A DNA stretch of 64,000 nucleotides, taken from positions 798,006 through 862,005 of the forward strand of contig CAWHHS010000006.1 in assembly GCA_963829195.1 (NCBI GenBank), given 5' to 3'. The notes beneath the pieces are model-generated. The model saw only the letters and a program-made list of their open reading frames with translations. It had not been told where the DNA came from and did not search any database. Positions 25,229 to 53,369 of this stretch are shown here, in pieces. The position numbers and the translations under genes are program-made. Each line of letters opens with the position of its first letter. The stretch's first letter is position 1. Source of the stretch: an uncultured Actinomycetes bacterium (GTDB lineage Bacteria > Actinomycetota > Acidimicrobiia > IMCC26256 > PALSA-610).

Positions 25229-25431
25229 CGTCGACTCCTTCGTTTGAAGCCGCACGGGAGCCGCGCGACTTGGCCTCGTCCTCTCGTATCGAGACCGCTC
25301 CGACCGTTCACCGGGTACATATCTCGCCCGAAGGCGACAATGGCAGCCCGCGCGCATCACTCGCCGCGTCACCCGTCATCTCCGGCCGCGTCTGGCTAGA
25401 TTCGGTGGCCTTCGGCGTCGGGGGGACGATC

Positions 25432-33831: not shown

Positions 33832-33872
33832 CGACCGGAGCCTACGAACGCGCGCCCGGCCGGCGCGCCGAT

Positions 33873-34952
33873 TTACGCGAAGACCACGGTGCGGCGTTCC
33901 GCGGCCGATCGGCGCATCCCGTCGAGCACGACCATGTCGGCGACGCCGTCTTCGAACGTCGCCGGCGCGGGCCCGGGCGGCGGTTCGGTGCCTTCGATAC
34001 GGGCGCGGAAGTGCTCGGCCAACCGCGTGTACGGGCCGAGGTCGAAGCCGTGCCCGGTCATCTGCTCGTACGCGGTGGTGAGGAGCTCGGGCGGCGGCGA
34101 GGCCGGCGGCGCAGTGCGCAGGTCGTCAGGGATGTCGAGCCGGCGGGCACCGCGCGCGTCGGCGACGCGCACCGTGTCCCCGACGCCTTCGATCCATGCC
34201 GTGCCCCGCGTGCCCACCACCCGCGTCTCGATGAGCATCGGGCCGCGGTCGGCGGCGGTGCTCTGCATGACACCCGCGACCCCGGAACGCGTCCGGAAGT
34301 GCACGACGAAACCGTCGTCGGCCGTGGTGCGGCGCGCGATGCGGACGACCGCGGCCGTGACGGCCTCGAACTCGCCGAGCGTGACGCGGATCTGATCGAT
34401 GACCTGTGAACCGTGCGCCCCGAGCCACCCGCCGCCCTGCGCCGCATCGGCCCACCATTCCGGGAGGCGGGCGTCGGCGTCGGACGAGCATCGGCACGTG
34501 CAGCACGAACATCGCGAGCCGGGGATCGCCGACAGCGCCCGTCGCGCGATCGCCCGGGCGAGGAGCGCCTGGCCGGTGTCGAAGCGGAATTCCGTACCGA
34601 GGAGGTGCACGACCCCGGCGTGACGGGCCGCGGCCAGCATCGTGCGTCCTTCGGTCGCGTCGCGCGCGAACGGCTTCTCGCACAGCACGTGCTTGCCCTT
34701 GCGCAACGCGTGCAGCACGAGCGGCGCGTGCGTGTTCGGCGGCGTGGCGACGGTGACGGCATCCGCTCCGGGTAAGGCGAGCGCGTCGTCGAACGACGTG
34801 CACGCGCGCGGCACGCCGACGGCTTCCGCCCGCCGTGCCGTCTTGTCGGGATCACGCCCGACGAGCGCGACGACGTCGAGACCCGCGCCGCGCAGCGCCG
34901 GGACATGGGTCAGACACCCGAAGCCGGTACCCACGACGACGACACCGGTCAC
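33873..34952 (-). CDS. Gfo/Idh/MocA-family oxidoreductase (paralog 2)
   Basis: VVVVGTGFGCLTHVPAL, HVLCEKPFARD. GTGA overlap with the paralog-1 stop. The ORF is open, but a ~60-nt internal stretch reads better in another frame when compared with paralog 1 (see finding). Confidence 0.75.
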   Translation of the reverse strand: MTGVVVVGTGFGCLTHVPALRGAGLDVVALVGRDPDKTARRAEAVGVPRACTSFDDALALPGADAVTVATPPNTHAPLVLHALRKGKHVLCEKPFARDATEGRTMLAAARHAGVVHLLGTEFRFDTGQALLARAIARRALSAIPGSRCSCCTCRCSSDADARLPEWWADAAQGGGWLGAHGSQVIDQIRVTLGEFEAVTAAVVRIARRTTADDGFVVHFRTRSGVAGVMQSTAADRGPMLIETRVVGTRGTAWIEGVGDTVRVADARGARRLDIPDDLRTAPPASPPPELLTTAYEQMTGHGFDLGPYTRLAEHFRARIEGTEPPPGPAPATFEDGVADMVVLDGMRRSAAERRTVVFA

Positions 34953-36029
34953 TTCGCGACCTCGATCGAACGGCCTTCCCGCGCCGATCGCCGGATCGCG
35001 TCGAGCACGTTCATGGTCGCGACGCCGTCGGCGAACGTCGCCGGCACCGGATCGTCGGGCATGGGCCGGCCCTCGATGCGAGCGAGGAACCGCTCGGCGA
35101 GGCGCGTGTACGGGCCGAGGTCGAGGCCGGTCGAGTGCAGCAGGTCGTACGCGCTCGACGAGGAGATCGGCGGGCGGCGGATCGGGCGCGCCGACCGCGA
35201 GATCGGCCGGCGCGGGGACGTCGCGGGTGCCGCCCGCGTCCGCGACCTGTACCCGGTCGCCTTCCGCCCACGCGGTCCCGTCCGTACCGGCGACCCGGGT
35301 CGCGAACAGCATCGGCCCGCGATCGCTCGCGACGCTCTGCATGAAGCCGACACAACCGTCCCGCAGCTGGAAATGCGCGAGGTACGCGTCCTCCGCCGTC
35401 CACGGGTGGTCGCCGACGTGCGGCAGGCTCGCGCTCACGGTCGCGAACTCGCCGAGCGTGCTGCGGATCTGGTCGATCACGTGCGACGCCTGCGCGCCGA
35501 GCCAACCGCCGCCCTGATCCGCGTCGCTCCACCAGCCCGGCACCTCGACGTCGGGCCCGGCAAGGAGTGGGATGTGCAACAGGAACGTCGCCAGGCGCGG
35601 CGCACCGATGGCTCCGCCCCGGATCGTGCGGGCCAGCAGGGCCTGGCCCGGCGCGAAACGGAACTCGGTGCCGAGGAAATGCACGACACCCGCCTGTTCC
35701 GCCGCCGCGAGCACGGCGCGGGCTTCGGCCGCGTCGCGCGTGAAGGGCTTCTCGCACAGCACGTGCTTGCCCGCCTCCACGGCCTCGAGACACAGGTCGG
35801 CGTGGGTGTGCGGCGGCGTCGCGATCGTCACCGCGTCGACACCGGGAACCCGCAGTGCGTCGGCGAGGCTCGTGCACGCGTGGGGGATCTCGAACCGCGC
35901 GGCGCGCGCCGCTGTCTTGTCGGCGTCACGGCCGACGAGCGCATGCACCTCGAACCCGGCCGCACGCAGCGCGCGGACGTGGGTGAGGCAGCCGAATCCC
36001 GTGCCGACGACCGCGGCGCCGGTGCTCAC
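34949..36029 (-). CDS. Gfo/Idh/MocA-family oxidoreductase (paralog 1); one frame break
   Basis: AAVVGTGFGCLTHVRAL, HVLCEKPFTRD. The C-terminus (LGPYTRLAERFLARIEG...IRRSAREGRSIEVAK) is in the frame ending at 34949. Break near 35160. GTGA overlap with the upstream CMD gene. Confidence 0.75.
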
Positions 36030-36550
36030 GCGGGGATGCCCGCCGCGTTCGCGACCATCGAGAGCATCGTGTACTGGCCGACGACGAACAGGATCTCGAC
36101 CAGCGCCGGTGCGTCGTAGGCCCCGGCGAGCACCGACCAGGTCGCGTCGCTCACGTCGCGGTCCCGGAGCAGCTCGTCGGCCGCGGTGAGCAGCGCCCGC
36201 TCGACCGCCGTCCACCCCTCCGCCGTGACGGACCCGCGCACCCGCGCGATCTCGTCTTCGGTCAGACCGGCCTCGCGCGCGTAGTCGGCGTGCTCGACCC
36301 ATTCGAACTCCGAACCGCAGTTCGACGCGGCCCGCAACGCCAAGAGCTCGTGATCACGGTGTGGGAGCACGCCGTTCAGCGCGAGTGCGGCGGCCCAACC
36401 GAGGAACGGGGCGAGCAGCTCGGGCCGGCGCGCGAGCACCGCCATCGTGCGCGCCGGTTCCTTCCCCGGCGGCGCGATCAACCCGAGCAACTCGCGCACG
36501 TCGGCTCGTAACTCGTCGGGCCGTGGCACTGCAATGCGAACGCCGTGCAT
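36026..36550 (-). CDS. carboxymuconolactone decarboxylase (AhpD-like) family protein
   Basis: ...LPHRDHELLALRAASNCGSEFEWVEH...LVEILFVVGQYTML. Confidence 0.7.
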   Translation of the reverse strand: MHGVRIAVPRPDELRADVRELLGLIAPPGKEPARTMAVLARRPELLAPFLGWAAALALNGVLPHRDHELLALRAASNCGSEFEWVEHADYAREAGLTEDEIARVRGSVTAEGWTAVERALLTAADELLRDRDVSDATWSVLAGAYDAPALVEILFVVGQYTMLSMVANAAGIPA

Positions 36551-36639: not shown

Positions 36640-38097
36640 TTATCGCATCCGCCCGGGCGACCCGACCCGGAAGACGAGCGGCCGCGACACTCCTATCCGT
36701 TGCGGGGCTCGATCAGCTTCGGAAGCCGCCCCGCCGCGAGCGCGGTCACGGCCGCGACGCCCGCGCACAGCGCGAAACGCGACGGTGGGCGCCGTGCCGG
36801 GCGCCCACGCGAGCGAGGCCCCGGCGGCCACGATCGCGCCCACGACGCCCGTGCCGAGGGCGACACCGAGCGTGTCGCACAACTGGAGCGACGCGCTGGC
36901 CGCGCCCTCCGCGCCCTCGGGTGCGCCCGAGAGCACGACGAGCGAGAGCGGCGCGTAGGACAGCCCCATCCCGAGCCCGGCGACACCCCACGCGAGCACG
37001 GCCCCGGCCGCCGGGAGCGCGGCCTGCGCGACGGCGATCATGATGCCGATTCCGGCGACGATCAGGAGCATCCCCGAACGCACGAATCGCTGCGGGCCGA
37101 CGCGCTGCACCAGACGCTCCTGCATCCACGCTCCGACCGTCCACGTCAGCGTCGCGACGGTGAGCGCGAGTCCGCCGAGCGCGATGCTCTCGCGGCGGAC
37201 CGACGTGACGGTGAACGCGACGTACGCGTCGGTCCCGAAGAACGCGAAGGTCGCGAGGCCGCGCAACGCGACCGCGGCGGGCAGCCCGCGTTCGAGACGG
37301 TGCGTCCCCGGCGGAACGAGATGCAGGAACGCGCGCGCGGCCACGATGAGCCCGACGACGACGAGGACGGGGGTCGCGATCAACGAATGCGCGGACGCGC
37401 CCGCGAGCACCAGACCGGCGCCGATCACGAGCACGACGGCGTCGCCGCGCCGATCGACCGGCTCCGCGCCGCCGGGCGGCCCGATCAGGTGCAGTGCGCG
37501 CGTCGTCGTCAACGCCGCGAAGGCGACGAGCGGCAGCAACCCGAGGAACACCCAGCGCCACCCGAACGCCTCGGCCACCGCGCCGCTGATCGCAGGGCCG
37601 ATCAGCCCGGGCAGCACCCACGCGGTCGACAGCACCGCGAACATGCGCGGCCGCAACTCGAGCGGGTACGAACGCCCGATCGCGACGTACGCGACCGCCG
37701 GGATCGCACCGGCGCCGATTCCCTGTACGGCCCGCGCGACGACGAGCGCGGCCATCGTCGGTGCGAGCCCACCGGCGCCGAGACCGACGGCGAACAGGAC
37801 GAGACCGAACATGAACGGGCGCGCCGGCCCGGAGCGATCGGCGGCGCGGCCCGCGGCGACGACGCCGAAGAGGTTCCCGAGGAAAAACGCGCTGAAGATC
37901 CAACCGAGCAGGCCGATGTCGTGCAGGTCGTCGTTGATCACCTTCACGATGGTCGCGACCGCGAGCCCCTCGAAGCCGACGAGCGTGATGGTGAAGAAGA
38001 GCCCGAGCGTCAGCGCGCGCCGGCCCGGTGCCAACACGCCGTCCGCGGTGACCTTGCCCGCGACGCCCGATGCCGTTCCGTCGTCGTCGATTTGCAC
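36640..38097 (-). CDS. MFS transporter (about 14-TM drug:H+ antiporter-like)
   Basis: GTG 38097 after an AT-rich spacer. GRAADRSGPARPF (motif A-like), many TM spans. The 626-aa ORF-track entry fuses it to the upstream small gene. Confidence 0.8.
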   Translation of the reverse strand: MQIDDDGTASGVAGKVTADGVLAPGRRALTLGLFFTITLVGFEGLAVATIVKVINDDLHDIGLLGWIFSAFFLGNLFGVVAAGRAADRSGPARPFMFGLVLFAVGLGAGGLAPTMAALVVARAVQGIGAGAIPAVAYVAIGRSYPLELRPRMFAVLSTAWVLPGLIGPAISGAVAEAFGWRWVFLGLLPLVAFAALTTTRALHLIGPPGGAEPVDRRGDAVVLVIGAGLVLAGASAHSLIATPVLVVVGLIVAARAFLHLVPPGTHRLERGLPAAVALRGLATFAFFGTDAYVAFTVTSVRRESIALGGLALTVATLTWTVGAWMQERLVQRVGPQRFVRSGMLLIVAGIGIMIAVAQAALPAAGAVLAWGVAGLGMGLSYAPLSLVVLSGAPEGAEGAASASLQLCDTLGVALGTGVVGAIVAAGASLAWAPGTAPTVAFRAVRGRRGRDRARGGAASEADRAPQRIGVSRPLVFRVGSPGRMR

Positions 38098-38143
38098 AAG
38101 TATATGGTTGCTGAAATCCCCTGTGCCCGGCCCGCGGGCGCGC

Positions 38144-38520
38144 TCAAGGGTTGAGCGAGGTCCCCGGGGGCGCCTGGCGGGACTCGGTCCACCGCACGCC
38201 GTCCCACCACCGCAGGGCCGCACCACCGCCGGGGTCGGGATACCAACCCGCGGGCGGCGCGAGCGGGCCGGGCGCGCCCGCGTAGGGCGCGCGGCCGACG
38301 CGATACCGAGGACCGCATCGCGCTTGGCGAACTGCCAGACGAGCGCACCGATGAGACCGGCCAGGACCACGATGAGGACCCAGGTCACCTTTTCACTCTG
38401 CGCCGCCCGGAACTGCTGCTCCGGAATGCGTGCGACCTCGACGATCTTGAGCACCCAGAACACGAAGCCGAAGATCCAGACGCCGAAGAAGAAGAGGAAG
38501 AAGAACCCGCCGAGAATCAC
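38144..38520 (-). CDS. small membrane protein: PLDc_N-like N-terminus + DUF2510-like C-terminus; one frame break
   Basis: MILGGFFFLFFFGVWIFGFVFWVLKIVEVARIPE...KVTWVLIVVLAGLIGALVWQF, then (other frame) PAGWYPDPGGGAALRWWDGVRWTE...stop 38144. Break near 38295. Confidence 0.6.
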
Positions 38521-38559: not shown

Positions 38560-40118
38560 TCACCCGCGCGGTCGGTCGCCGCCGACGATCCCGGTCACGG
38601 TGCGCGGACGGGGCGTCGCCACCAACGGCCAGGGCATCTCGCGCTCGGCCGCGAGCGCGACGTCGAAGAGCAGGTCGTCGGCGTGATGGCGGGCGAGGAC
38701 CTGCATGCCGACGGGGAGCCCGCCGACGTCGCCGCTCGGGATCGACACCGCGGGATTGCCGTAGATGTTCGAGATGATCGTGAGCGCGCCCATGTGGACG
38801 AGGTCGGGGAAACGCTCCGACACGACGTCGAGCATCGCCGACGGCAGCCTGGGGAACGCCGCGCCCGCGAACCGCACGCCCCCCATGGCGGCGCGAAAGC
38901 CCAGCTGCGCGAACCGGTTCGACTTGGCCCAGTCGATGAAGCTCGCCGACGAGCTGCTCAGCGCGGCGTCGGCCGCGAACGCGGGCCCGGGATTGGTCGC
39001 GGCGATGACGAAGTCGACCTCGTCGAACGCAGCCGCCATCGCCTCGTTGGCGCGCATGCGTTGTTCCTCGGCGACGGCCGCGGTGTGCAGGTTGTACATC
39101 GACTGCGCGAGCAGGAGCCCGACCGTCAGCTCGTCGGTCAGCTCCGCCGCGCAGCGCGGCCACCGGTCGCCGAGATCGGCGAGCAGTGTCGCGAGGTTGC
39201 CCATCATCCACTGCGCCGCGAGGTTCGGCACGTCGATGTCGAGATCGACCTCGATCATCCCGGTTGCGGCAATCAGCGTCGCGGCCGACGCGCGCAGGTG
39301 GTCCTCGACGCCCGGCTCGAGCGTGCCCGCCGCCGAGCGCGGGAACGACCGCGACGCGCCGGCCCGCGAGGTCGTTCGCACCGAGACCGGCTTCCCATCC
39401 CGGTCGAGCGGGCAGGCTCCACGGATCGCGCGCGTCGTAACCGGCGCACACGTCGAAGTACCGCGCCGCGTCGCGTACCGATCGCGCGAGACAGCCGAGC
39501 ACGATCGTGCCGGGCCGGAAGTATGCGTGCGGACCGCGCGGGATCCGGCCGTAGGTGCCCTTCATCCCGACGAGGCCCGTGTACCCGGCGGGGATGCGGA
39601 TCGATCCCCCGCCGTCGCCACCGGTCGCGAGCGGGACGAGCCCGCCGACGACCGCGGCCGCGCTCCCGCCCGAGGAACCGCCGACCGTCCGGCCGTACCG
39701 CCAGGGGTTGTGGGTGACGCCGTTCAACTTCGTGACGCTCACGTTGAGGCCGCCGAACTCGCTCGCGGTCGTGAGGCCGACGGGAACCGCACCGCCCCCG
39801 CCGAGCAGGCGCTCGACGACGGTGCTCGTGTGGTTCGCGACGCGATCGCGGAAGACCAGCGACCCTTCGGTCTGCGGCCAGCCGGCGACCGGTTCGAGCT
39901 CCTTCACGCCGACGGGAACACCACCGAACGGAAGGGCGACGTCGGCGTGCTCGACCGCCTTCGCGCGCCCGTTCCTCGTCGACGAACGAGAAGCAGTTGA
40001 GGTCGCTGCGCGCGATCGCGGCCAGCGTCGCTTCGAGCTCCTCGCGGGGCGAGCGTTCGCGCCGGCGGAACGCGTCGACGAGCGAACTGGCGTCGCCGGC
40101 CCAGGTGTCGCCACTCAT
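38560..40118 (-). pseudogene. amidase-signature (AS) family amidase; 2 frame breaks
   Basis: MSGDTWAGDASSLVDAFRRRERSPREELEA..., then GVPVGVKE...GGSSGGSAAAVVGG...ATGGDGGGSIRIPA (AS Ser-cisSer-Lys core), then a C-terminal third ending at 38560. Breaks near 39960 and 39340, both +1. ATGA overlap with the EcfS stop. Confidence 0.75.
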
Positions 40119-40936
40119 GGGCCGATGATGCCATCGGGCGCCGCGCCCGCGCCCGTCGACCGCGCCCGCTTCGGGCCGGAACTCGACGGGCGCCCGGAAC
40201 GAGGCCCGCCGCGCCGCCCGCCGGAAGGTCGCGAGCGCGGCGGGACCGAGCAGCAGGATGCAGCCGAGGTTGGTGATCGCGCGGCCGGTGTCCCAGCCGA
40301 GCGAGGTGGTCGCGTCGAACAGGAGGTAACGGTGCAGCTGGGTCGCGAAGGCGGCACCGGGCAGGTACGCGATCGAGCTACCGGGATCGACCGAGAACGG
40401 CCAGAACTGCAGATTGAGCATGAAGCCGAAGAAGTAGCCGGCGAGCACGCCGTACGCGGCCAGCATCGCGAGCTCGCGCTTCCCCGGCACTGCGGCAGGA
40501 GGCCGGCGAACATCCCGACCCACGCACAGCCGAACATCTGGTACGGCATCCACGGCCCGACACCACCGGTGATGATCGCCGACGCGAACAGCGACGTGCA
40601 GCCGAGCGTGAACCCGAAGCCCGGACCGAAGACGCGGCCTGCGAACACGAGGGTGAAGAAGACGAGCTCGATGCCGGCCGTACCCGCGCCCAGCGGACGC
40701 AGTGCCGCGTTGAGTGCCGACAACACGCCGAGCATCGCCAGCGCCTTCGCGTCGATGCCGCCGTCGGCGATCTCCGCGAACACGACCGCCAGCACGAGCA
40801 ACAGGAGGACGCCGAACATGAGCGGCGCCGTATACGCACTGCCGAACTTGCCCGGCGCGAGCACGAAGGGCCACAAGAAGCACACGAAGCCGACCAACGT
40901 CGCGAGCGCGGCGGCGGCGACCGAACGGCGCTGCAT
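40115..40936 (-). pseudogene. ECF transporter S (substrate-capture) component, specificity unknown; at least 2 frame breaks
   Basis: Frame-1 piece: six-TM-type sequence LATLVGFVCFLWPF...GIELVFFTLVFAGRVFGPGFGF...GPWMPYQMFGCAWVGMFAGLL. Piece in a second frame: AVPGKRELAMLAAYGVLAGYFFGFMLNLQFWPFS. The length from ATG 40936 to the stop at 40115 is a multiple of 3, so the shifts compensate. Confidence 0.65.
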
Positions 40937-41006
40937 GCGGATGACCGCGCGCCCACGGCGCGTTCCGCGTGCGCGTGCGTCCGGCCGGGGCTCGCCGCGG
41001 TCGCCG

Positions 41007-42639
41007 TCACCGCAGCACCGCCCGTTCGAGCGCGAGAGCGACCTGTTCGACGGTCAGGTACGGCGAGCGGGGCGAGGATCTTCGCGACCTGGGGCGCGAA
41101 CGCGGGCGACGAGACGACGACGTCGGCCGTCGGCCCGTCGGCGACGATGTCGCCCTCGGCCATCACGACGACCCGATCGGCCGCGGACGCGACGAACTCG
41201 ACGTCGTGGGTCGCGACGACCACGGCCCGGCCTTCGGCTGCGAGCCCGTCGACGATCCGCACGAGCGCGCGCTTGGCTTCGTAGTCGAGCCCGCGGGTCG
41301 GCTCGTCGAGCAGCACGACCGGCGGCGCGGCGCGCAGTTGCACGGCGAGCACGAGCGCGAGCCGTTGCCCCTCCGAGAGGTCGCGCGGGTGCAGCGCGTC
41401 GGGGATACCCGGGCGCGAGCCGGTCGAGCAGCGCGCGCGCCGGCGGCGACGACGAGTCGTGCGATTCGGCGTCGGCCTGGTCGCAACTCGGCGCGGACGG
41501 TCTCCAGGTAGAGCAGGTCGGCCGGGGTCTGCGGGCACGAGACCGACGAGCGCGCGCGCGCCCGCGCGGCGGAGAGCGTCTTCGGATCGCTCCCGCCGAC
41601 GTCGACGATGCCGCTCTGACGTTTGCCCGAACCCTGGATCGCCCAGAGCAACGACGACTTCCCGGAGCCGTTGCGCCCCATCAGCGCGGTCACCTCGCCC
41701 GCGGCGAGATCGAGATCGACGCCGCGCACCGCGACGACGTCGCCGTACCGCACGACGATCCTGCGGCAGCGACACGACGGTGCGGTTCGTGCGAACCCGG
41801 GCGGGCACCGGGGCCGGCGGGTCCGGTGCGAGGACGCCGCGCAGGTCGCTCGGCGCAGCGCGCCGTGCGTCGCGCACCGACAACGGCAACGGTTCCCAGC
41901 GCGCCAGCCGGCCGAGCTCGACGACCGGCGGCGCCACCGTCGTGGTCGCGAACATCGCGGCCGGCGGGCCTTCGGTCACGGTGCCGTCACCGGCGAGATG
42001 CACGACCCGGTCGGCGTACTGCACGACCCGTTCGAGCCGGTGCTCGGCCAGCACGACCGTGACGCCGAGGTCGTGCACCAGCCGGGTGATCGCCGCGAGC
42101 ACCTCCTCGGCCGCGGTCGGGTCGAGCGCCGAGGTCGGCTCGTCGAGCACGAGCACGCGCGGGTGCGGCGTGAGCACTGCGCCGATCGCGACCCGCTGCT
42201 GCTGACCGCCCGAGATCTCGTGCAGCGCGCGGTAGCGCAGCTCCGCGAGCCCGAGCAGGTCGAGCGTCTCCTCGACGCGCTTGCGCATCACGGCGGGCGC
42301 GACCGCGAGCTGCTCCATGCCGTAGGCGAGCTCCTCCTCGACGGTGTCGGTGACGAAACCCGCCAGCGGATCCTGACCGACGACACCGACGATGTCGGCG
42401 AGCTCGCGCGGCGGGTGCGTCGCCGTATCGCGGCCGCCGACGGTGACCCGACCTTCGAGCAGCCCGCCGGTGAAGTGCGGGACGAGACCGTTGATCGCGC
42501 CGAGGAGCGTCGACTTGCCCGCACCGGTGCGCCCGACGACGAGGCACAGCTCGCCTTCGGCAATGTGCAGATTCACGTCGCGCAGCACCGGCGCGGGAGC
42601 GTCGGTGTACGTGATGCTGACGCGGTCGAAGTCGATCAT
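41007..42639 (-). pseudogene. ECF transporter duplicated ATPase (EcfA-EcfA' fusion); at least 5 frame breaks
   Basis: First cassette is intact: GRTGAGKSTLL, SGGQQQRVAIG, VLVLDEPTS, AEHR. The second cassette is split across frames: GRNGSGKSSLL / LVGLVP / QTPADLLYLETV / LSEGQRLALVLAV, VVLLDEPT, ATHD / YLTVEQVALALERAVLR-stop. Confidence 0.8.
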
Positions 42640-43830
42640 GCCGGCACGCCCGCGCGTTCGAGCTCCGGGGCCGACTCGGCCGGCGGCTGCGGTCGGGGCG
42701 GAACTTCGTGGCGGTGTGGTCGCGGCGGCGGGGGCGCGACGATGCCGGCGAGCGCGGCGACGAGGATCGCGACCGTCGGGACGATCGGCAGCGCAGGGAA
42801 ATGCAGCGGGGAGAACGACGGGTTCAGGTCGGCCGCGCCGAACTGTGTGCTCGCGTACAGGAGCGTCGCGGTCACGAGGCCGCAGCCGGCGACGATCCAC
42901 TCCGGCGCGCGCCAGGGATCGGGGCGGTAGTTGCTGCGCGTCACGCGGCGGCCTCCGAGCGAGAGCCCCGCGCAACAGAGCGCCGCGCCCACGAGGATCG
43001 TGGGAAGACCGAGCGCGCGCGGCGAGGTGCTGTCGAGCAGGCCGTAGGCACCCGCGGCACAGGCCGAGCATGCCGGCGAGCATCAGCACCGCGGTGATCC
43101 GGCGCGTGGTCCGGGTCGCGGTTCCCGTGCGCCCGTAGCCGCGCGAGTCCATCGCCGCGGCGAGCAGCATCGATCGTTCGAGCGCGTCCTCGAGCACCGG
43201 GATGGCGATGCTGCGCAACGCGCGCAGTCCCTTGCTCCGGCCCGCGCGCAACCGCCGCGCGCGCGTCACCCGCTGGACGCTCTCGACGAGCTGGGGCGCG
43301 ACACTGATCGCGATGACGACGGCGACGCCGAGCTCGTAGAGCGCGCCGGGCAGCACGCGCAGGGCCCGCTTCGGGTTCGCGAGCGCGTTCGCGGCGCCGA
43401 TGCAGCAGATGAGCGTGCCCAGTCGCAGCCCGTCGGCGGCCGCCGAGAGCGTTGCCTCCAACGACACCGCCCCACCGATCCGGACACCCGAGTACCAGCT
43501 CGGGGTCGAGACCTGCGGCAGCCGGAAGAGCACGTGGTCACCGGGCGCGATCCCGGAGCCGAACACCGAACGGAACGCGACGCGGAGGGCGATCACGACG
43601 ACGCCGAGCACGAGGTAGTACTTGAAGGCTCGCGCCCAGGGTGCTTCCGTGCGCCGGCTCACCACCACGAACGCCAGGACACCGAGGACGAGCGCCAGCA
43701 GCAACGGGTTGGTGGTTCGGTTCACCGCGACCGCGAGCCCGAGCGCCCAGATCCACCATGCGATCGGGTGGAGCGCACGCGGGAGCCGCTGGGCGTCGCT
43801 CAACGCGTACGCGCGCGGCGAGGCGGTCAC
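42636..43830 (-). CDS. ECF transporter T component (EcfT/CbiQ family); one frame break
   Basis: HPIAWWIWALGLAVAV..., RALRVLPGALYELGVAVVIAISVAPQLVESVQRVTRARRLRAG (coupling-helix Arg motifs). The C-terminus is in the frame of 42636..42992. Break near 43040. GTGA overlap upstream and ATGA downstream. Confidence 0.75.
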
Positions 43831-44801
43831 GCTTCCGCCCGGCGGCGCCGGACCGAGACCGCGGCGGCCGCCCCGCCCAACCCGGCGATCAACCCGAGCG
43901 CGATCACCAGCGGAAACGCCGAACCCGCCGACGCACCGCCGCGCGGCGCCGGTTGCGCGTCGACGATCTTCGGGCTCGACGCGGCGAGCGCGGCCGATCG
44001 CGCGCCGGCGGTGGGCGCGATCGTCGTCGACAATGCGGACGCGACACTCGGCGCCGCGCTTCGCTTCGTACCGGCGGTCGACGTCGACGTCGTGCCGGTT
44101 CCGGCGATGCCACCCGCCCGCGTGCTGCCCGTGGTCACGGAACCCGACGGAGACGGACCCGATGCCACGGACGCGCCGGCCGGGTTCATCGGGTGCGCCG
44201 TCGTCGGCGGCGTGGTCGCACGCGTGGACGCGGTGGTGTGCGGCACCGTGACGGGTTCGGTGTTCTCGGCACGAACCGCGTCGGGACCGAACGTCGGGGG
44301 CGACGGCCCCGCGGTCCCGGCCGCACCCCCGAACGTCCACAGCTCCACCGCGCCCGCCTGCGGGACGTCGCTCATCGCGCCGCGGGGGCTGTAGGTCCAT
44401 GCGCGCTGCCCGGCCGGTGCGACCCAGAACGCCCAGGACGCGTTCGCGGGCGGCGTGAGAACGCACCGGTCGTCCGAGGGTGTCGGGTACTGCGTCCCGT
44501 TCCCGAACGCCGCGTTGCCGACGCGACACACGAACCCGGGCCCGTCGTGCACGTCGCCGCTGGTGACGAAGCCCGCCGCGTGCAGCAGCGCATAGCCGCT
44601 CGCCGCACGCACGCCGCAACCGCGCACGACCGGCCCGCCGAAATGCGAGAAGTCGACCGCGACGATGGTGCCGATCTGCGTGCTGCAGTTCCCGATCGGA
44701 TCGGCGCCGGCGGCCACGACGCTCGCCGCCGTGATCACACCACCGAGCACGATCATCACCATCATCAGTGCGGCCGCGCCACCGCGGCGGAGCGCGTTCA
44801 C
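43827..44801 (-). CDS. membrane-anchored DUF4430-like (transcobalamin beta-domain-like) protein
   Basis: Intact. N-terminal TM AAALMMVMIVLGGVITAASVV. Then VDFSHFGG...GYALLHAAGF...GFVCRVG...CVLTPPANASWAFWVAP...WTYSPRGA...AVELWTF. A Thr/Ser/Pro linker follows, then a C-terminal TM plus RRRR. Confidence 0.65.
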   Translation of the reverse strand: MNALRRGGAAALMMVMIVLGGVITAASVVAAGADPIGNCSTQIGTIVAVDFSHFGGPVVRGCGVRAASGYALLHAAGFVTSGDVHDGPGFVCRVGNAAFGNGTQYPTPSDDRCVLTPPANASWAFWVAPAGQRAWTYSPRGAMSDVPQAGAVELWTFGGAAGTAGPSPPTFGPDAVRAENTEPVTVPHTTASTRATTPPTTAHPMNPAGASVASGPSPSGSVTTGSTRAGGIAGTGTTSTSTAGTKRSAAPSVASALSTTIAPTAGARSAALAASSPKIVDAQPAPRGGASAGSAFPLVIALGLIAGLGGAAAAVSVRRRRAEA

Positions 44802-46121
44802 GGTCCGTCCGGGCCGCGGCGCCGGCGCGTCGCGAACGTCAGGCTCGTGCCCACGACGAGCAGCACGACCACCACCACAGCCGCGGCCGCGGCATCGGTC
44901 CCCGTCGCGGGCAGCGTCGCCGGCGGGACGGTCGACGCGGGCGGCGTGGGTACTGACGCAGGCGCCACGCGAACCGTTGTCGTCGACGACACCGGCGGCC
45001 GCGTCACCGTCGTCGTGGAGACCGCGGTCGTAGAGGTCGAGCCGCCGCCATCCGGCGCTCGACGTGACGTCGTCGGACAATGTTCCGAACGACGTGCCGA
45101 CGAAGCCGCCGACGACCTGGGCCGACGCGCGCACGTCCGAGCCGGACTGGCCGGCCCCGACGTCGAACCCGCCGTCGGCGTTCTGCTCGCCGGCGAGGAA
45201 CGAGGCGGCCTTTGCGATCTGCGTCGCGTACCTCGGGCCCGCGAGCGAGAGCCCTTGGATGGCGAGCGCGGCAGAGTTGGTCGACTCCCCCGCCGTCCCG
45301 GTGAATCCGCCGTCGCTTCGCTGTCGTTGCGCGATCCACGTCTCGGCCTTCGTCACCGCCGCGGTCGCGGCCGGATCGGTGCCGACGAGCGCGAGCGCCA
45401 TCGCGGCCATCGCGGTGCTGTCGACATCCGCGTCACCGGTCGACGGCAGGAGGCTGGGCCACGCGCCGTCACTGTTCTGCAGGGTCTCGAGATACGCGAT
45501 CGCCGGCGCGGCACCCGCGTGGTCGCCGGCGCGGAGTTGCGCGATGATCCCCGACGCCTGCGCGAACGTCGACGTCGCGAACAGGAAGTTCCCCGGCGCG
45601 CTGCACCCGTTGGCGACGTCGGCCGTCGTGCAGATGATCCCGTCGAGCGCGGCGATCAGGTCGTGACCGCCGAAGTGACGGGGATCGAAGCCCGTCGCTT
45701 CGGCCAGCAATGCTTCTTTGCCGATCGAACCACCCGTGGCGAACGCGGTACCGATGCCCGTCCAGTCGTTCACCGATTGTCCCGACGGGTCCTTCGTCGC
45801 GTGATCGAGGAGGTCGACGACCTTCCTCAGCGTCGGGTTGTCGGTCCCGGCCGCGGCGAGCGCGAACGCGCCGTCGACGGTCAGACCGAAATCCGCGAAC
45901 CCGGGGAACGACTCGTAGTAGCCGTCCGTGCCGAGGCTCGTCCCGTCGTGCACGCCGTTCGCGCCCGTCGTCGTGGTGAGGTAGTGCACGGCCGCGGCAA
46001 GGTTCGGGGTCGGCGCCGCGGATGCGGGTGCGGCGACACCGAGCACGAGACCGAGCGCGACGATCACGCCCGCCCCGACGCCGCGCCGCTCGAACCTTGC
46101 CGGTGTGCCACCTCTGTACAT
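44798..46121 (-). CDS. LPATG-anchored alpha/alpha-toroid (prenyltransferase/squalene-cyclase repeat-like) surface protein; one frame break
   Basis: Signal peptide GVIVALGLVLGVAAPASA. Repeats QNSDGAWPS, RQRSDGGFTG, EQNADGGFDV. Then (next frame) a Thr/Pro linker ...ATLPATGTDAAAAAVVVVVLLVVGTSLTFATRRRR. Break near 45065. GGAG SD before ATG 46121. Confidence 0.7.
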
Positions 46122-46170
46122 CTCCGCACCCTTCGCTGGTGTCGACCGTGGCGTCGCGCCCGGACCGCGC

Positions 46171-47686
46171 CTACTTCCCCCGCCGGATCTGCCCGGGCGT
46201 CTTCGACGGTGTCGCGGCCGCGCCGAACGCCCACGCGTCGATGCTGCCGAGCGGCGGCACGTAGGTCGCCGCGCCGGTCGTCGCGTAGGTCCACGTCGTC
46301 GCACCGGCGAGCGCGTGGTAGTAGCTCCAGTACGCGGTCGACGGCGGCGTCGACACGCACGCCTGCTGCGCGGGCGACGGCAGGTCGTCGATACGGCAGA
46401 TGAACGCGAAGCCGTAGTGGGTCGTCCCCGCGGGCGTGAAGCCCGCGTTCTGCAGCGCGGCGAGCCCCGACGACTGCTTCCCGGGCGCGCAACGCGTCTG
46501 CACGCCGAGGTTGAACGCGGTGAAGTCGACGCTCACGGTCACGCCCGTCCGCTTCGGGCAGCGGCCCGCGGTTCCGGCGAGCGCGGTCGGACGCGACGCG
46601 TCGGCGCCGCGGCACGACACCGACGGCACACGCGTCGACGGTGTCGAGGCCGCGAGCGGGAACGTGTGCAGCGCGGCCGCGGGCACGGCCTGCACCGTCG
46701 CGAACGTGTTCGGGCGTGCGGCTGCCGGGGAAGAAGAACGCGCCGCGCGCGTCGACGGGATCCGTGCAGCCGAGCTGGAAGCTCCGCAGCGCGGCCATCG
46801 CCGCGCCCGGCCCGGCGTGCTCGGCCAGCAGCGCCTGGATCGTCAGCGCGGTCGAATCGGGATCCGACGGCTGGCCCGGCGCGGCGAGGAACGGGTAACC
46901 GCCGTCGGCCGATTCGATGCCGTGCAGTGCCGTGAGCACGCGGTGCGCCTTCGGAAAGCGTCCGTACGCGGCGAGTCCCTGCACGGCCATCGACGTGCTG
47001 TTCGTGTCGGGACCCGCGAACGTGTCGGGGTCGGCGGCCGGGCACGGAACGGACACGTCCGCCCGGTACGACGTCCACAGGCCGTTGTCGCACTGTTGCG
47101 CCTCGAGCCAGGCCAACGCGTTCGTGACGCGGTGCTCCCCGACCCCGGCGGCTGCGAGCGCCGCGAGCGCGACCCCCTCGCGGAACGATCCGTCGAACGA
47201 CGGGTCGGCGGACCCGAAGAGACCCGCATCCGAGCCGGAGGTGCGCTCGGTGGCGAGCAGCCGGTCGACGAGGTCGTTCTGCGGCAGCCGGCCGCCGAAG
47301 CGGTGCGGGTCCTGTCCCGACGCGACGGCGGCCATGACGACGTAGCCGAGCAGCGCCGGATCGTCGTTCCCGTCGGAGCCCTGCAGGTTCCCGAGTTGCG
47401 TCTGCAAGAACGCGATCGCGTGGCGGGCCTGGACCGCGCCGACGCCCGCCGCGTGCAAGCCGAGCACCGCGTAGGCGGTGTCGCTCACGTCGGCCGCGCC
47501 GAACGAAACGAGATGACCGCCGTTCGCGTCGATCTGGCGGGCGAGATACGCGGCACCGACGCGGGCCGAGTTCGCCGGCGGTGCGGGGGCGACGGCGGCC
47601 GCCGTGGCCGAGGGCGGCTCGGAAGCGAGCAACCCGCAGCTCAGGGCGACGCTGATCGCAAGTGTGGTGAGTCTTCCGGTGAGCAC
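46171..47686 (-). CDS. secreted alpha/alpha-toroid + DUF4430-like fusion (full transcobalamin-like architecture); one frame break
   Basis: GTG 47686 after an AGGGGGA SD. Signal peptide LTTLAISVALSCGLLAS. Repeats QIDANGGHL, QQCDNGLW, IESADGGYP. Then (next frame) VSVDFTAFNLG...GLAALQNAGF...GFAFICRIDDLP...CVSTPPSTAYWSYYHA...WTYATTGA...SIDAWAF. Break near 46720. Confidence 0.7.
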
Positions 47687-47760
47687 CTGATCCCCCTTGA
47701 CGGTGGGAACGGCGAGAGGCACCCGCGCGGTTCCCGCCCCGTCTCGAGGAGGGGGATCGC
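47684..47760 (-). promoter_or_regulatory. putative SD-sequestering helix (riboswitch expression platform)
   Basis: Minus-strand GATCCCCCT (47758-47750) is perfectly complementary to AGGGGGATC (47697-47689), which contains the SD 2 nt upstream of GTG 47686. Confidence 0.5.
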
Positions 47761-47779
47761 CCAGGCTCCGACGCGCAGT

Positions 47780-47940
47780 CCACGGCGTTTATACGGAGCC
47801 CGTTCCCGCAGGCATTCCGGCTCGCCCATCTCGCGATGGGCCTACGGCTGCGGGTCAGCGCCGGACTTGGACCGGCTTCCCCCGCGAGAACGTGCGTCGC
47901 GGAACGTAGCACAGCACCCGGCCGCCGGCATCACCCCGAT
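47780..47940 (-). promoter_or_regulatory. cobalamin (B12) riboswitch-like aptamer
   Basis: The minus strand reads GGGGAAGCCGGTCCAAGTCCGGCGCTGACCCGCAGCCGTAGG, then GAGCCGGAATGCCTGC (47823-47808). These match the conserved core and B12 box as I remember the consensus. It lies in the 293-nt gap upstream of the operon. Confidence 0.65.
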
Positions 47941-47979: not shown

Positions 47980-48590
47980 CTATTTCGCGCGGGACTTCGC
48001 CTTGGCGCCGTTGGTGCCGGACGGCAGGGCCGGCATCGCGTCGCGCAACTCCTCGACCGCACCGCACAGAGCGTCGACCTTGCGTTCCAACGACGCCAAG
48101 CGGTCGTCGCCGTGCGCGCCGGCACCGTTCCCGGCCGGCGGCCGCCGCGCACAACTGCTCGTGACACTGCCGGAGGCACGCGCGCGGTGTCGCGCTCTTC
48201 GGCGATGTAGCGGCCGAGCAGTTCCCCGGTCGCGATGTCGATCGAGTGATCGCGGAAGAAGTCGTCGAAGATGTCGGGTTCGTCGCCGCGGTCGAGGCGG
48301 TGGAGCTTCAGTGCCTCCATCTTCTCGAGATCCGAGCAGTCGGAGGTGACGAGCGCGATCGCCTTCGCATTCTCCTCGGCACCTTTCGGGCGCACGTCGT
48401 AGCCCAGTTCGTTGATACGGCGTGCGAACGACATCGCGTGCTCGCCTTCGCGTGCCGCCACCTTGCGCAGCACGGCGCGGACGTCGTCGCTCGGCGTCAC
48501 TTCGGCCCACGCGCAGAGATATGAGTGCGCATTGCCCTCGGCATTGGCGATCGCGTTCAGCAGCCCGAGGTAGGTCGGCTTGTCACTCAT
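47980..48590 (-). CDS. ferritin-like/rubrerythrin-like domain protein; one frame break
   Basis: MSDKPTYLGLLNAIANAEGNAHSYLCAWAEV...LRKVAAREGEHAMSFARRINELGY. Coiled C-terminus (LASLERKVDALCGAVEELRDAM) is in the frame ending at 47980. Break near 48175. Confidence 0.55.
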
Positions 48591-48669
48591 CGTGCGCCTC
48601 CGTCGTCGAATGCCCGCAGACCACGCTCGCGCCGATCGCCGCCGCGTGCAAAGAGGGCCCGACGCCGGC

Positions 48670-50846
48670 TCAGCCGGCGGCCCGGAGCCGGAGGCGGACC
48701 CAGCCCGCGTCGCCGACGTCGACCGCAACCTCCCAGCGGCCGCGGTCGTCGCGGGTCACGGGGACCTCCGAGGAACCGCCGCCCGGCGCCCGGCACTCCG
48801 CCGCGATCGCGCGCCGGACCAGCCCGCGACCCGCACCCGTTCGCCCGCGCCGAGCACGGTGACGACGACTCCTTGTCGGTCACGGTGACGTCGGCGATGC
48901 GGGTATCGCCCGCGCACACGTACACGCCCGGATCGCCGAGCACCGCGATCTCCCCCGCGAGCACGGGCGCGAGGATCCGGTAGTCCCATCCAGCCGGCAC
49001 GAGCGCGACGTCGTAGCCAGCGTCGGCGGCCAACACGTCGACCGCGCCGGTGCGCCAGTCGAACACCGCGACCGCGTCGGCCTCGGGCGCGTCTTCGCCG
49101 AGACTCGCCAACTCGACCCGCGTCGTGCCCGCCGCGCCGTCCATCCCGACGTTGGTCGTGACGACGTAGCCCCATTGTCCCGCCGAATGACACGTGTCGC
49201 GCGGACGCGACGAGCAACGCGCCCGTCCACACCGGCGCGTCGAACATCGCCCGGTCGATCGCGGCAATCGGGAACGTCGGGCCGCACGAGCACGCCGTCG
49301 GCGCGGCACGTCCGCCGGATGAGATCGACGTCGGCCTCGCCGATCCGGTCGCCGACGCCCACCGGTCCCGCCGAGAGCGCCGCGAGCAACGCCTCGACCT
49401 CGCGGGTCGCCGAACCCGCCGCGGAATGGAACACGTCCTTGTACGGCCACAGGCCGAGCGCGCGGGCCATGGCGTTGTTGTGCAGGAACCACGCCCACAA
49501 CACTTCGGGACCGACGAGGTAACCGTGGTCGCCGCTCGTGCGGATCGACGTGACGTTGCGCAGCCGGCTCGTCTCCGCGAAGTCGGCCGGGCGAGGCCAT
49601 GCACCACTGCGCGTGCAGGTTCCGCGCGCCGAGCCCGGCGTCGATCCCCTCCTGCCACGCCGCGGCGCGGCCCGGCGCGCGCAGTTGGCGCACGCCGAGG
49701 AAACATTCGATCAACCAGTCGTGCTCGAAGACCTCGACGCCCCAACTCACGGCCTGGTCGAGCAACCGTTCGTAGAGCTCGCCGTCCCTCGGGTGCGCGC
49801 GGTCGCCGTCGACCCACGTCGCGAACTCGTCGACGTAGGGCGACTGCGACGAGAGGTGCCGGCAGTGCACGGTCAACGGCCGGCGACCGAGCCGCTCGCG
49901 CAACGATGCGCACACCGTCGGGCAGCACGTCGGCGCGCGCCTCCCAGCGGACCATGCCGGTCGGCGGGACGACCCACTCGTCGGTGTCGAACGGGCGCAG
50001 CACCTCGTGCGGGTACCACCACGAGTCGAGTTGCACCGATCCGACCGGCAGGCCGCGCGCTTCGAGGTCGTCGACCGCGGCGACGACCGTGGAAGCCGCG
50101 TCGAGGCCGGGTTCGGTCCGGTACCAGTACGCGCTGCCGTTGTCGGTCCAGTACGACACCCGCGTCCCGAGCGTGTCGGCGTCGCGATCGGGAGCGGACA
50201 CACCCGACCTCGCGCGCAAGAGGCGGGCCCAGCGCGCGTAGCAGTCGCGCGCGCCGTTCCCGGCGATCACCGCGAGCTCGGTGGTGAATCCGGCGTCGAC
50301 GGCGTCGATGTCGCCGTGCCAGCCCACGCGCAGACCCGAACCGGCCTGTTCCTTGCCCGCGGGCACGCCGATCACCTGCTCGTGGAACGCACCGAGCGGC
50401 GCGAGCAGGATGGTGCGACCGTCGGGCGCGACCAGACCGAGCGGCATCACCACCGCGGGCCGGAAGGGCAGCAGCCGCCAGCGCGAAGCGCGGCATCACT
50501 GAAGACCGGCAGCGCGAACTCCGTGTACTGATGGCCGAACGCGCGCATTCCTACGGGCGCGCCGCCCTCGGCTCGGCGGTCGGGCTCGAAGTGCCACACG
50601 ACCGCAGGTGACGCGAAGTCGCCCGTCGCGAGCCCGCGCGGCGCAGTGCGTCGCGCGCAGCCGCAGCACGAGCACGGGTTCGTCGCCGTCGCCGAGCGCG
50701 CGCACGTCGCCGACGATCGCGTCGCTCGGTGTGACGACGCGGCCGGGCCCGAGCCAGTCCGACTCTCCCCAACCGATACGCACGTGGCCGTCACCCGCCA
50801 CGACGGCACGCAACGGTCCCGCGCGCAACGCGACGGATTCGGGCAT
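48670..50846 (-). pseudogene. glycoside hydrolase, GH36/Sip1 (raffinose-synthase)-like; at least 5 frame breaks
   Basis: Pieces: MPESVALRAGPLRAVVAGDGHVRIGW...; VVWHFEPDRR...GHQYTEFALPVF; SYWTDNGSAYWY...VQLDSWWYPHE; WGVEVFEHDWL; LWPYKDVFHS...ALLAALSAGPVGVGDRIG; VAVFDW...GWDYRILAPV. Family call is tentative. Confidence 0.5.
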
Positions 50847-51781: not shown

Positions 51782-53334
51782 TTGAGCAAGCGCCGGCTCG
51801 GCGAGACTGCCCGTGATGACGGCGTCGACGCTCCCGTCGTGGCCCACTGGGTCGACGGCAAGCTCGTCGAGGGATCGCCGCACGCGCACGGGTGAGGTCT
51901 TCGACCCCGCGACCGGCCGGCGTGACGAAGCACGTCGCGTTCGCGTCCGCCGACGAGGTCGACGCCGCGGTCGACGTCGCGACCGAGCGCGTTCGCGGCG
52001 TGGCGCGACGTCGTCGCTCGCGGAGCGCATCAAGCATCCTGTTCCGGTTCCGCGACCTGCTCGACCGACGCGTCCGACGAGCTCGCGGCGATCATCACCG
52101 CCGAGCACGGCAAGGTGCCGAGCGACGCGCGCGGCGAGGTCGCGCGCGGGCTCGAGGTCGTGGAGTTCGCGTGCGGGATGCCGCAACTGCTCAAGGGCGA
52201 CTTCTCCGAAGGCGTGTCGGCGCGGGTCGACGTGACCTCGATGCGCCAGCCGCTCGGCGTCGTCGCGATCATCAGCCCGTTCAACTTCCCCGCGATGGTG
52301 CCGTGCTGGTTCTTCCCGATCGCGATCGCGGCCGGCAACACGGTGATCCTCAAGCCGAGCGAGAAGGACCCGTCGGCGGCGAACTGGCTCGCCGAGCTGT
52401 GGGCCGAGGCGGGACTGCCGGCCGGCGTGTTCAACGTCGTGCACGGCGACAAGGTCGCGGTCGACCGGCTGCTCGAGCACCCGGGGGTCAAGGCGGTCTC
52501 GTTCGTCGGGTCGACGCCGATCGCGCGCTACGTCTACGAGACCGCGACGCGTTTCGGCAAGCGGGTCCAGGCGCTCGGCGGCGCGAAGAACCACATGGTC
52601 GTGTTGCCCGACGCCGACCTCGACCTCGCGGCCGACTCCGCGGTCAACGCGGGCTTCGGTTCGGCGGGCGAGCGGTGCATGGCGATCTCGGCCGTCGTCG
52701 CGGTCGGTGCGACCGCCGACGAGCTCGTCGCGAAGATCGCGGAGCGCATCGGCGGGCTGACGGTGGGCGACGGCCGCGCCGGGCGCCGACATGGGTCCGC
52801 TCATCACCGCGCGCGCATCTCGACAAGGTCACGTCGTACCTCGACGCCGGCGTGAAGGCCGGCGCGACGCTCGTCGTCGACGGCCGGGAGCACCCGAGTT
52901 CGACGGCGAACCGGCCGGGTTCTGGTTGGGCCCGACGCTCTTCGACCACGTCACCGCCGACATGGACCTCTACACCGACGAGATCTTCGGCCCGGTGTTG
53001 TCGGTGGTGCGGGTCGACACCTACGACGACGCGCTCGACCTCGTGAACGCCAACCCCTACGGCAACGGCGCCGCGATCTTCACCAACGACGGCGGCGCGG
53101 CGCGCCGCTTCCAGAACGAGGTCGAGGTGGGGATGGTCGGGATCAACGTGCCGATCCCCGTTCCCGTCGCGTACTACTCGCTTCGGCGGCTGGAAGAGCT
53201 CGCTGTTCGGGGACACGCACGCGTACGGCCCCGACGGCGTGCACTTCTTCACCCGTGTCGCAAAGTCGTGACCAGCCGCTGGCTCGACCCGAGTCACGGC
53301 GGCGCTCAACCTCGGCTTCCCGCAGAACCGATAG
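51782..53334 (+). pseudogene. mmsA: methylmalonate-semialdehyde dehydrogenase (CoA-acylating)-like ALDH; at least 10 frame breaks
   Basis: GGAGGGAA SD plus TTG 51782. Pieces: VAHWVDGKLVEGS / RTGEVFDPATGR / [17 protein letters not shown] / AFAAWRDV / ILFRFRDLL / [14 protein letters not shown]...[13 protein letters not shown]...GERCMAIS... / MGPLIT / [10 protein letters not shown] / FWLGPTLFDHV...EIFGPVLSVV...PVPVAYYS / [16 protein letters not shown] / VVTSRWLDP. Confidence 0.75.
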
Positions 53335-53369
53335 ACCCAACTCCGAACCGACGACACGAGGGGATTCGC

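Follow-up and report, generated by a model that had tools for sequence, protein, structure and literature searches.

A riboswitch-led actinobacterial operon encoding surface proteins of predicted transcobalamin-like fold and an ECF transporter: a probable corrinoid capture and import system

We analysed a 64,000-nucleotide stretch of DNA from an uncultured Actinomycetes bacterium (contig CAWHHS010000006.1; hereafter the window, which has 71% G+C over its whole length), with a focus on a minus-strand operon that is headed by a cobalamin riboswitch and encodes three predicted surface proteins together with an energy-coupling factor (ECF) transporter. The order of genes is A, B, C, EcfT, a fused EcfA-A' ATPase, an ECF S component, and an amidase, and the seven same-strand genes described in a sequence-only reading of this DNA were thus all found. 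That reading had also proposed four start/stop overlaps. All four tetranucleotides are present (GTGA 44801-44798, GTGA 43830-43827, ATGA 42639-42636, and ATGA 40118-40115), although the last one, between the S component and the amidase, would require one further frame correction that is undemonstrated, as the tail of S and the N-terminus of the amidase share a frame with no stop between them (open reading frame (ORF) 39273..40883).

The riboswitch core and B12 box that had been proposed at 47940-47780 coincide with a match to the cobalamin riboswitch aptamer model RF00174 at 47790..47931 on the minus strand. The full model (positions 1-189) was aligned by cmscan with 45.1 bits (E 4.2e-8; gathering score 31.5), and no other Rfam match in the 64 kb reached its gathering score. 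A custom covariance model, R1, which was built from eight Rfam-confirmed riboswitches, scored the same element at 130 bits. The aptamer ends 104 nt ahead of the GTG start of gene A on the same strand. The intervening expression platform (47687..47789, minus strand) contains, as read from the sequence, a Shine-Dalgarno (SD) element AGGGGGAU at 47697-47690, 3 nt ahead of the GTG at 47686, and an anti-SD AUCCCCCU at 47757-47750 that is its perfect complement. The minimum free energy fold of the leader pairs the two elements. B12-dependent sequestration of the SD in the leader of gene A can only be inferred, because the fold energy of the expression platform (z-score -1.4) is not significant for such GC-rich RNA. 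A terminator and promoter scan of the operon returned nothing above shuffle expectation.

Reading frames were assessed with a frame plot of G+C at third codon positions (GC3), three-frame translations, and tblastn with intact orthologues. Gene C is the sole intact ORF; the other six of the seven operon genes needed frame corrections, with at least 10 frame changes spread over them within the 9.4 kb of the operon. Such a density, together with truncated or fused public gene calls, could mean that the operon is a decaying pseudogene cluster, whose frameshifts are real and whose system is non-functional in this organism, whatever its role elsewhere. Nevertheless, Viterbi frame segmentation found switching to be equally dense in coding DNA over the entire window, and locus-specific pseudogenisation was rejected since the switches extend this far. 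On either side of every shift GC3 remains at 0.85-0.98, and alignments of the stitched proteins with homologues show no premature stops. Many of the relatives are 'MFD' metagenome-assembled genome (MAG) assemblies, several of which likewise yield split tblastn matches, as expected from indel errors. Because the switching is window-wide, the frameshifts are read here as suggesting assembly indel errors, and decay of the operon is considered unlikely. Public gene calls of a contig from such an indel-rich assembly are therefore truncated or fused: P0003 has 552 aa, and P0181 has 764 aa, with B and C forming one continuous ORF (43827..46304) when uncorrected. Frames also switch every few hundred bases in high-GC3 coding DNA outside the operon, for example at 52066-55859 on the plus strand and at 48176-50478 and 33844-36503 on the minus strand.

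Gene A (46171..47686, minus strand), which carries a 1-nt insertion near 46711, encodes a signal peptide, an alpha/alpha toroid, a Cys-containing linker, and a C-terminal beta domain (SCO2322-type, beta-grasp), according to the frame plot, translations, and tblastn. Linker apart, this is the layout that had been proposed, although the toroid repeat given for it, Q-x2-[DN]GG[FWYH], has 0 copies in its strict form and three in a relaxed one. More than 100 Actinomycetota homologues of 515-550 aa, with identities of up to 72%, align with the stitched protein over its full length, and the family has several conserved disulfide-type cysteines. As no anchor is present, A is predicted to be secreted. 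A lipobox was considered and rejected, the Cys of 'ALSC' being unconserved among homologues. By hmmscan, A weakly matches the SQHop_cyclase and Prenyltrans Pfam families, and a profile of the A family searched against the PDB weakly matched squalene-hopene cyclase (E 8e-6). The DxDD motif (D.DD) is absent from both A and B, which suggests that their toroids are non-enzymatic. The DVDD of squalene-hopene cyclase aligns with a conserved DTNS of the A family, in which D, T, and S are invariant and N is nearly so. A and B are related to the SCO2321 family yet are not equivalogs, with 164.1 and 61.7 bits, respectively, against the cut-off of 300 of the equivalog model NF053823 (SCO2321 family membrane protein). 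For the SCO2322 family model NF040672 (cut-off 85), scores were 22.9 bits for A and 21.4 bits for the C protein of a related locus, L018. Precomputed matches to PF28005, mostly weak, are recorded on many homologues of A and C.

Gene B (44798..46121, minus strand), with a frame shift near 45050, encodes a signal peptide, an alpha/alpha toroid, a Thr/Pro linker, and an LPATG sortase signal, as judged from Pfam matches and the translation. The toroid, linker, and LPATG that had been ascribed to it are all present after frame correction. Its C-terminus then reads LPATG (44914-44900), a hydrophobic stretch TDAAAAAVVVVVLLVVGTSLTFAT, and RRRR (frame 2), and B is predicted to be anchored to the wall through sortase. 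Pfam scores of B were all above cut-off (SQHop_cyclase_N 37.9, SQHop_cyclase_C 36.1, and Prenyltrans 30.4 bits), and the strict Q-x2-[DN]GG[FWYH] motif occurs twice. Annotations of B homologues read 'LPXTG-motif cell wall-anchored protein' or 'prenyltransferase/squalene oxidase repeat-containing protein'. Between A and B, the toroids are related as distant paralogues (26% identity, E 4e-5).

Gene C (43827..44801, minus strand) is intact over 975 nt and 324 aa. It comprises an N-terminal signal/anchor segment, a beta domain, a long low-complexity linker, and a C-terminal transmembrane segment followed by RRRR, and the protein is predicted to be membrane-anchored. The beta domains of A and C are paralogous (38% identity, E 3e-27). 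About 60 homologues of C were found, each of roughly 300 aa and some with PF28005, and a search of 1.84 billion proteins for the beta domain gave 817 representatives (50% identity level, E<=1e-3). Eight beta-domain homologues (P0194, P0195, P0200, P0219, P0222, P0224, P0238, and P0265) have 800-1200 aa with the domain near the N-terminus and may be EcfT/EcfA fusions or read-through gene calls. The conserved C-terminal module of the C family (43827-43990 in the window) has the form P-[KR]-I-V-D-A-x-P, about 10 residues, S-x-G-S-x-x-P, a transmembrane segment, and W-RRRR. It looks like a sorting signal, though not LPXTG, and it matches no motif that we recognised.

Structure prediction linked both A and C to the eukaryotic cobalamin carriers. 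The AlphaFold2 model of A (pLDDT 82) had transcobalamin (7qbe_C) as its best Foldseek match in the PDB, with E 1.3e-6 and about 498 aligned columns covering both domains. Next came rat and bovine transcobalamin, as well as intrinsic factor, with about 490-510 aligned columns, and terpene cyclases were aligned over about 310 columns of the toroid only. The beta domain of C (pLDDT 83.5, pTM 0.81) best matched 5no0, the beta domain of human transcobalamin (probability 0.99, TMt 0.58). Transcobalamin or haptocorrin chains filled its first 12 Foldseek ranks; intrinsic factor came 14th, the DUF4430 structure 3u7z 17th (E 0.39), and generic ubiquitin-like beta-grasps reached E of about 1. In the model of C, strands 66-69 and 72-78 come after helices 42-48 and 56-59, an order that may fit the beta-hairpin insert located after the beta-grasp helix in the transcobalamin-like clade of SLBB domains. 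The structural comparison thus bore out the likeness to transcobalamin that the sequence-only reading had expected, and the predicted fold of A is an alpha/alpha toroid followed by a C-terminal beta-grasp domain, as in transcobalamin, intrinsic factor, and haptocorrin.

The ECF transporter genes follow on the same strand. EcfT, a T component of CbiQ type with a long C-terminal extension (42636..43830, minus strand), matched PF02361 with 34.2 bits against a cut-off of 25 and has a frame shift near 43051 as indicated by tblastn frames; its L018 orthologue scored 42 bits. The fused EcfA-A' ATPase with two ABC domains (41007..42639, minus strand) was traced by tblastn with its 566-aa orthologue from L018, which gave four high-scoring segment pairs in three frames. 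At least four frameshifts are located near 41820, 41481, 41408, and 41062, and the stop is at 41009-41007. Two ABC_tran stretches were recognised in the intact L018 ATPase, along with matches to ECF_ATPase_1 and ECF_ATPase_2. The S component (40115..40936, minus strand; frame shift near 40483) belongs to a family without an assigned substrate. It scored 29.1-29.8 bits against the PF12822 cut-off of 30.7, and no stop was found in the frame that reaches the ATG of the amidase. PF12822 was matched by nine of 19 S orthologues (best E 2.7e-10) and ECF-ribofla_trS by two of the 19. Orthologues are 45-83% identical and are placed after EcfA-A' in 38 loci. No relevant match to the S component was obtained among all PDB chain sequences, a set that should include ECF-CbrT, by phmmer or with a 19-sequence profile. 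CbiM and CbiN were matched by Pfam in none of the operon proteins. The T component and two ABC ATPase domains beside an S component constitute a dedicated group I style ECF module. The gene assignments that had been made from the sequence alone were therefore upheld, EcfT and the amidase by Pfam and the ATPase through its L018 orthologue.

We then surveyed related loci by scanning one genome per GTDB species with the alignment of A, which yielded 80 loci, all from Actinomycetes or Acidimicrobiia except for one MAG labelled Burkholderiales. Using R1, a cobalamin riboswitch was found 100-450 nt upstream of the toroid gene on the coding strand in 79 of the 80 loci; the exception, L024, lies at a contig end with only about 100-130 nt of upstream sequence. 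The linkage of such clusters to B12 regulation, which had been proposed as a check, is thus nearly universal. Rfam itself confirms the riboswitch in the window and in L001, L005, L006, L015, L022, L036, L040, L082, and L083. In L003 and L020, RF00174 is just below threshold (Rfam E-value mode), and all remaining R1 matches likewise precede module genes. Where A and the B-C-T-AA'-S genes form separate units, each has its own riboswitch, either in tandem (L020 and L023) or divergently (L007, L008, L010, L014, L016, L019, and L082). EcfT and the specific EcfA were found in 41 loci and S in 38. Among cultured relatives, Streptomyces seoulensis (a divergent pair) and Kitasatospora fiedleri (three riboswitches) have the same module with above-threshold RF00174 matches. 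Extra riboswitch copies lie between A-type and B-type genes in L020 (11560-11703) and L023 (11754-11882), two precede the toroid gene of L078 (8865-8994 and 9810-9937), and the three copies of Kitasatospora fiedleri are in L083.

Domain architectures vary across the family and include the fused toroid and beta domain, a toroid followed by a separate beta ORF, a toroid with LPXTG, and a toroid with other C-terminal domains. LPXTG-type tails were present on 10 related toroid proteins. The fused form (A) and the split form (B and C) that had been distinguished in the window therefore both recur over the family, with separate toroid and beta genes in many relatives. In several loci (L022, L024, L029, L035-L040, L042-L045, L053, and L063), the toroid ORF stops just after the invariant linker Cys ('...LTPC*' or '...KLTCPAH*'), about 330 codons from its start, and the beta domain is the next ORF, a gene fission or fusion exactly at the interdomain linker. 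Riboswitch-led toroid proteins of Acidimicrobiia carry other C-terminal modules (L046, L056, L057, L060, and L070; L058, L064-L068, L076, L077, and L079): one group repeats 'GYWLVAADGGIFSFGDAAF', and another has an apparently immunoglobulin-like tail ending in '...WKVLSITVS'. ECF genes were often undetected near these toroid genes. The Burkholderiales-labelled locus (L022; CAZLEC010000220.1) contains a module of typical actinobacterial make-up (riboswitch, toroid, beta, T, AA', and S) with a riboswitch match of 67% GC, and its label is probably due to a binning contaminant.

Taken together, B12-repressed corrinoid capture coupled to ECF import is the best explanation for the operon, to which we give a probability of about 70%. 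What was observed here comprises the riboswitch and the order of the genes, the predicted folds and the paralogy of the domains, a riboswitch linkage that is nearly universal in relatives, and an ECF linkage that is frequent in them. Signal peptides, LPATG, and transmembrane tails predict that A, B, and C are located outside the cell. The riboswitch leader would turn the operon off when B12 is plentiful, with the anti-SD of the B12-bound leader probably pairing with the ribosome-binding site of A, and the bound leader perhaps also terminating transcription, so that expression would be confined to B12 scarcity. Secreted A could clamp one corrinoid between its toroid and its beta-grasp domain, and the wall-linked toroid B and the membrane-tethered beta domain C may together represent an A-like binder split into two surface chains. 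When intrinsic factor is cleaved, its alpha and beta fragments come together again on cobalamin, and a split version made of B and C is therefore plausible. The captured corrinoid would pass to the dedicated S component and be imported by EcfT and the fused EcfA-A'. Corrinoid binding, a B-C heterodimer, and hand-off to S are what we infer from these data. The observation made from the sequence alone was thus confirmed in part, and its interpretation is supported.

Several results weigh against this explanation. Cobalamin_bind (PF01122) was matched neither by A and B (E<=0.01) nor by three A homologues (E<=1), and DUF4430 (PF14478) was matched by neither of the beta domains of A and C even at E<=1. 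The human transcobalamin TCN2 used as a control scored 394 bits for Cobalamin_bind and 24.9 bits for DUF4430 against a cut-off of 23.8. Of the Pfam matches that had been anticipated, those to SQHop_cyclase and Prenyltrans were therefore obtained, above cut-offs for B and weakly for A, and those to the two cobalamin-carrier families were not. The earlier description of C as a beta domain with hydrophobic segments at both ends is accurate, but the label 'DUF4430-like' given to it and to the beta domain of A lacks support from the family's hidden Markov model (HMM). An hhalign comparison of the A family with human TCN2 gave a probability of 0.25%, that is, no signal, and a beta-domain profile searched against PDB sequences matched only the ErbB2 transmembrane peptide through its transmembrane tail, which is spurious. 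At the structural level, Foldseek E-values of cyclases (drimenyl-diphosphate synthase and squalene-hopene cyclases) for A equal those of transcobalamin, TM-scores are about 0.4-0.5 with an rmsd of 11 Å over both domains, and the match of 5no0 to the beta domain of C has a modest E of 0.015. A and C thus fold like transcobalamin in their predicted models, a likeness at the level of the fold only, with membership in the transcobalamin sequence family undemonstrated. In addition, no ECF genes were seen within 10 kb in about 40% of the loci whose flanks are long enough, and most genes of the window are frameshifted, so function in this organism depends on the shifts being assembly errors. To our knowledge, ECF transporters are not known to require extracytoplasmic binding proteins. 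Finally, the sole experimentally studied system of this architecture, lsa1836-1840 of Lactobacillus sakei, was linked to heme uptake and not to B12 uptake (bioRxiv 10.1101/864751).

One alternative is that cobalt or a small precursor of B12 (dimethylbenzimidazole (DMB) or alpha-ribazole) is the cargo of the ECF module, with the toroid and beta proteins being accessory or unrelated. In its favour, CbiMNQO cobalt importers are commonly under the control of B12 riboswitches, the Pfam family matched by EcfT (CbiQ) is one of 'cobalt transport', and the S component, having no assigned substrate, would leave room for such a cargo. Yet neither CbiM nor CbiN is encoded, and S matches the generic ECF_trnsprt family rather than CbiM. 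Moreover, the invariant riboswitch target is the toroid gene, which keeps its own riboswitch when apart from the ECF genes, and a two-domain transcobalamin-like clamp would fit a large corrinoid better than an ion. We consider cobalt or precursor import improbable.

Another tetrapyrrole, such as heme, might instead be the cargo, with corrinoids as a side substrate at most. In L. sakei, the lsa1836-1840 operon encodes an S component, a fused A-A', a T component, a separate beta-like protein, and a separate exported alpha-like protein modelled on transcobalamin, and a deletion mutant showed defective uptake of heme and was restored by complementation (bioRxiv 10.1101/864751). Its five functions correspond to B, C, T, AA', and S of the window, a likeness judged by gene set from that paper. 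It differs from the window in its heme uptake link, in that no riboswitch was reported, and in having no additional fused A protein. A heme cargo is hard to square with the finding that, in 79 of 80 loci, a cobalamin riboswitch leads each of the module's transcription units, and no heme-related genes or regulators were seen beside the module in the tblastn survey, so heme as the main substrate appears quite improbable to us. Least credible is the idea that A and B are secreted terpene cyclases, prenyltransferases, or other alpha/alpha-toroid enzymes whose transcobalamin likeness is generic to toroids: the public names 'terpene cyclase/mutase family' and 'prenyltransferase/squalene oxidase repeat-containing', the equal Foldseek E-values, and the weak PDB profile match speak for it, but DTNS stands in place of the missing DxDD, both proteins are exported and have a beta-grasp domain, fused or as a partner, for which the best structural matches are all transcobalamin-family beta domains, only transcobalamin and intrinsic factor give a full two-domain alignment of A, and B12-riboswitch control would have no rationale for a terpenoid enzyme.

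Corrinoid capture with ECF import can be compared with what is known of related systems. The sequence-only reading was aware of no functional description of such proteins; besides the L. sakei study, however, transcobalamin-like SLBB (DUF4430) proteins of Firmicutes and archaea have been described, with signal peptides or Gram-positive anchors, toroid fusions, a paralogous second SLBB protein, and CbiO/CbiQ neighbours, and B12 scavenging was predicted for them (Burroughs, Balaji, Iyer & Aravind 2007, PMC1796856). The window operon shows all of these contextual features. It differs in its host phylum, Actinomycetota, and in that its beta domain, which is missed by the DUF4430 HMM, probably belongs to a separate curated family (SCO2322, PF28005). 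The word 'riboswitch' has zero occurrences in PMC1796856, and the riboswitch link is documented in the present survey. Compared with the eukaryotic carriers transcobalamin, intrinsic factor, and haptocorrin, which are likewise extracellular, A has the same domain order of a toroid followed by a beta-grasp domain, whereas no sequence homology to the window proteins is detectable. The eukaryotic carriers use receptor-mediated endocytosis, in contrast to the sortase and transmembrane-tail anchors, ECF importer, riboswitch, and conserved cysteines of the window system. On the transporter side, ECF-CbrT of Lactobacillus delbrueckii, an importer of cobalamin and cobinamide, was predicted from B12 gene context and then verified (Santos et al. 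2018, PMC5997447), and it is the one proven ECF cobalamin importer. Unlike the window S component, which lies in a dedicated group I style operon and has no PDB sequence match, ECF-CbrT uses a shared group II ECF module and has no extracytoplasmic binder. Our literature search found nothing relevant on SCO2321-SCO2325 and no experimental work on the actinobacterial proteins. The system is most likely a sequence-divergent actinobacterial representative of the kind predicted earlier, biochemically untried for B12. What the present analysis adds is a riboswitch linkage that is nearly universal and holds for each transcription unit separately, together with the occurrence of the module in tractable Streptomyces and Kitasatospora.

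With 79 of 80 loci linked to a riboswitch, and each transcription unit separately, the case for a corrinoid substrate is far stronger than the one available for the Firmicute systems, on which the only experiment pointed to heme. If corrinoid capture and import is correct, it would provide a function for the named but unexplained SCO2321 and SCO2322 (PF28005) families and for many proteins misannotated as 'prenyltransferase/squalene oxidase repeat' or 'terpene cyclase/mutase', and it would show by what route many Actinomycetes and Acidimicrobiia of soil, Streptomyces and Kitasatospora among them, acquire B12. It would also test the textbook rule that ECF transporters operate without extracytoplasmic binding proteins and would make it possible to study by experiment the bacterial ancestry that has been proposed for animal transcobalamin and intrinsic factor. 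A bolder proposal, which we hold to be possible though doubtful, is a three-tier corrinoid relay, in which A would act as a secreted 'cobalophore' that delivers to the wall-anchored alpha chain B and the membrane-tethered beta chain C, and these in turn to S, with actinobacterial SCO2321/SCO2322 representing a deep bacterial branch of transcobalamin/intrinsic factor missed by sequence methods. If the relay were true, dependence of an ECF importer on extracytoplasmic binding proteins would be shown for the first time.

The last gene of the operon encodes an amidase-signature enzyme (38560..40118, minus strand; Pfam Amidase E 1.8e-71) with at least two frameshifts. It had been counted into the module, but a homologue was present at only one of the 80 related loci, and there on the opposite strand, so the amidase was rejected as a conserved member of the system. 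On the same strand, an ORF resembling a major facilitator superfamily (MFS)-type transporter by its translation begins about 40 nt past the amidase stop (region 36640-38520). Only a weak terminator-like hairpin was seen there, at 38524-38508, and the MFS-like ORF may be co-transcribed with the operon. Elsewhere in the window, a lower-GC island at 21000-25500 (62-66% against 71% overall) holds long intact ORFs. Judged from translation alone, a 659-aa ORF at 21344-23323 is acyltransferase-3/SGNH-like, and an ORF at 24608-25372 is possibly sulfotransferase-like. The island is free of the frame switches found elsewhere and may be horizontally acquired.

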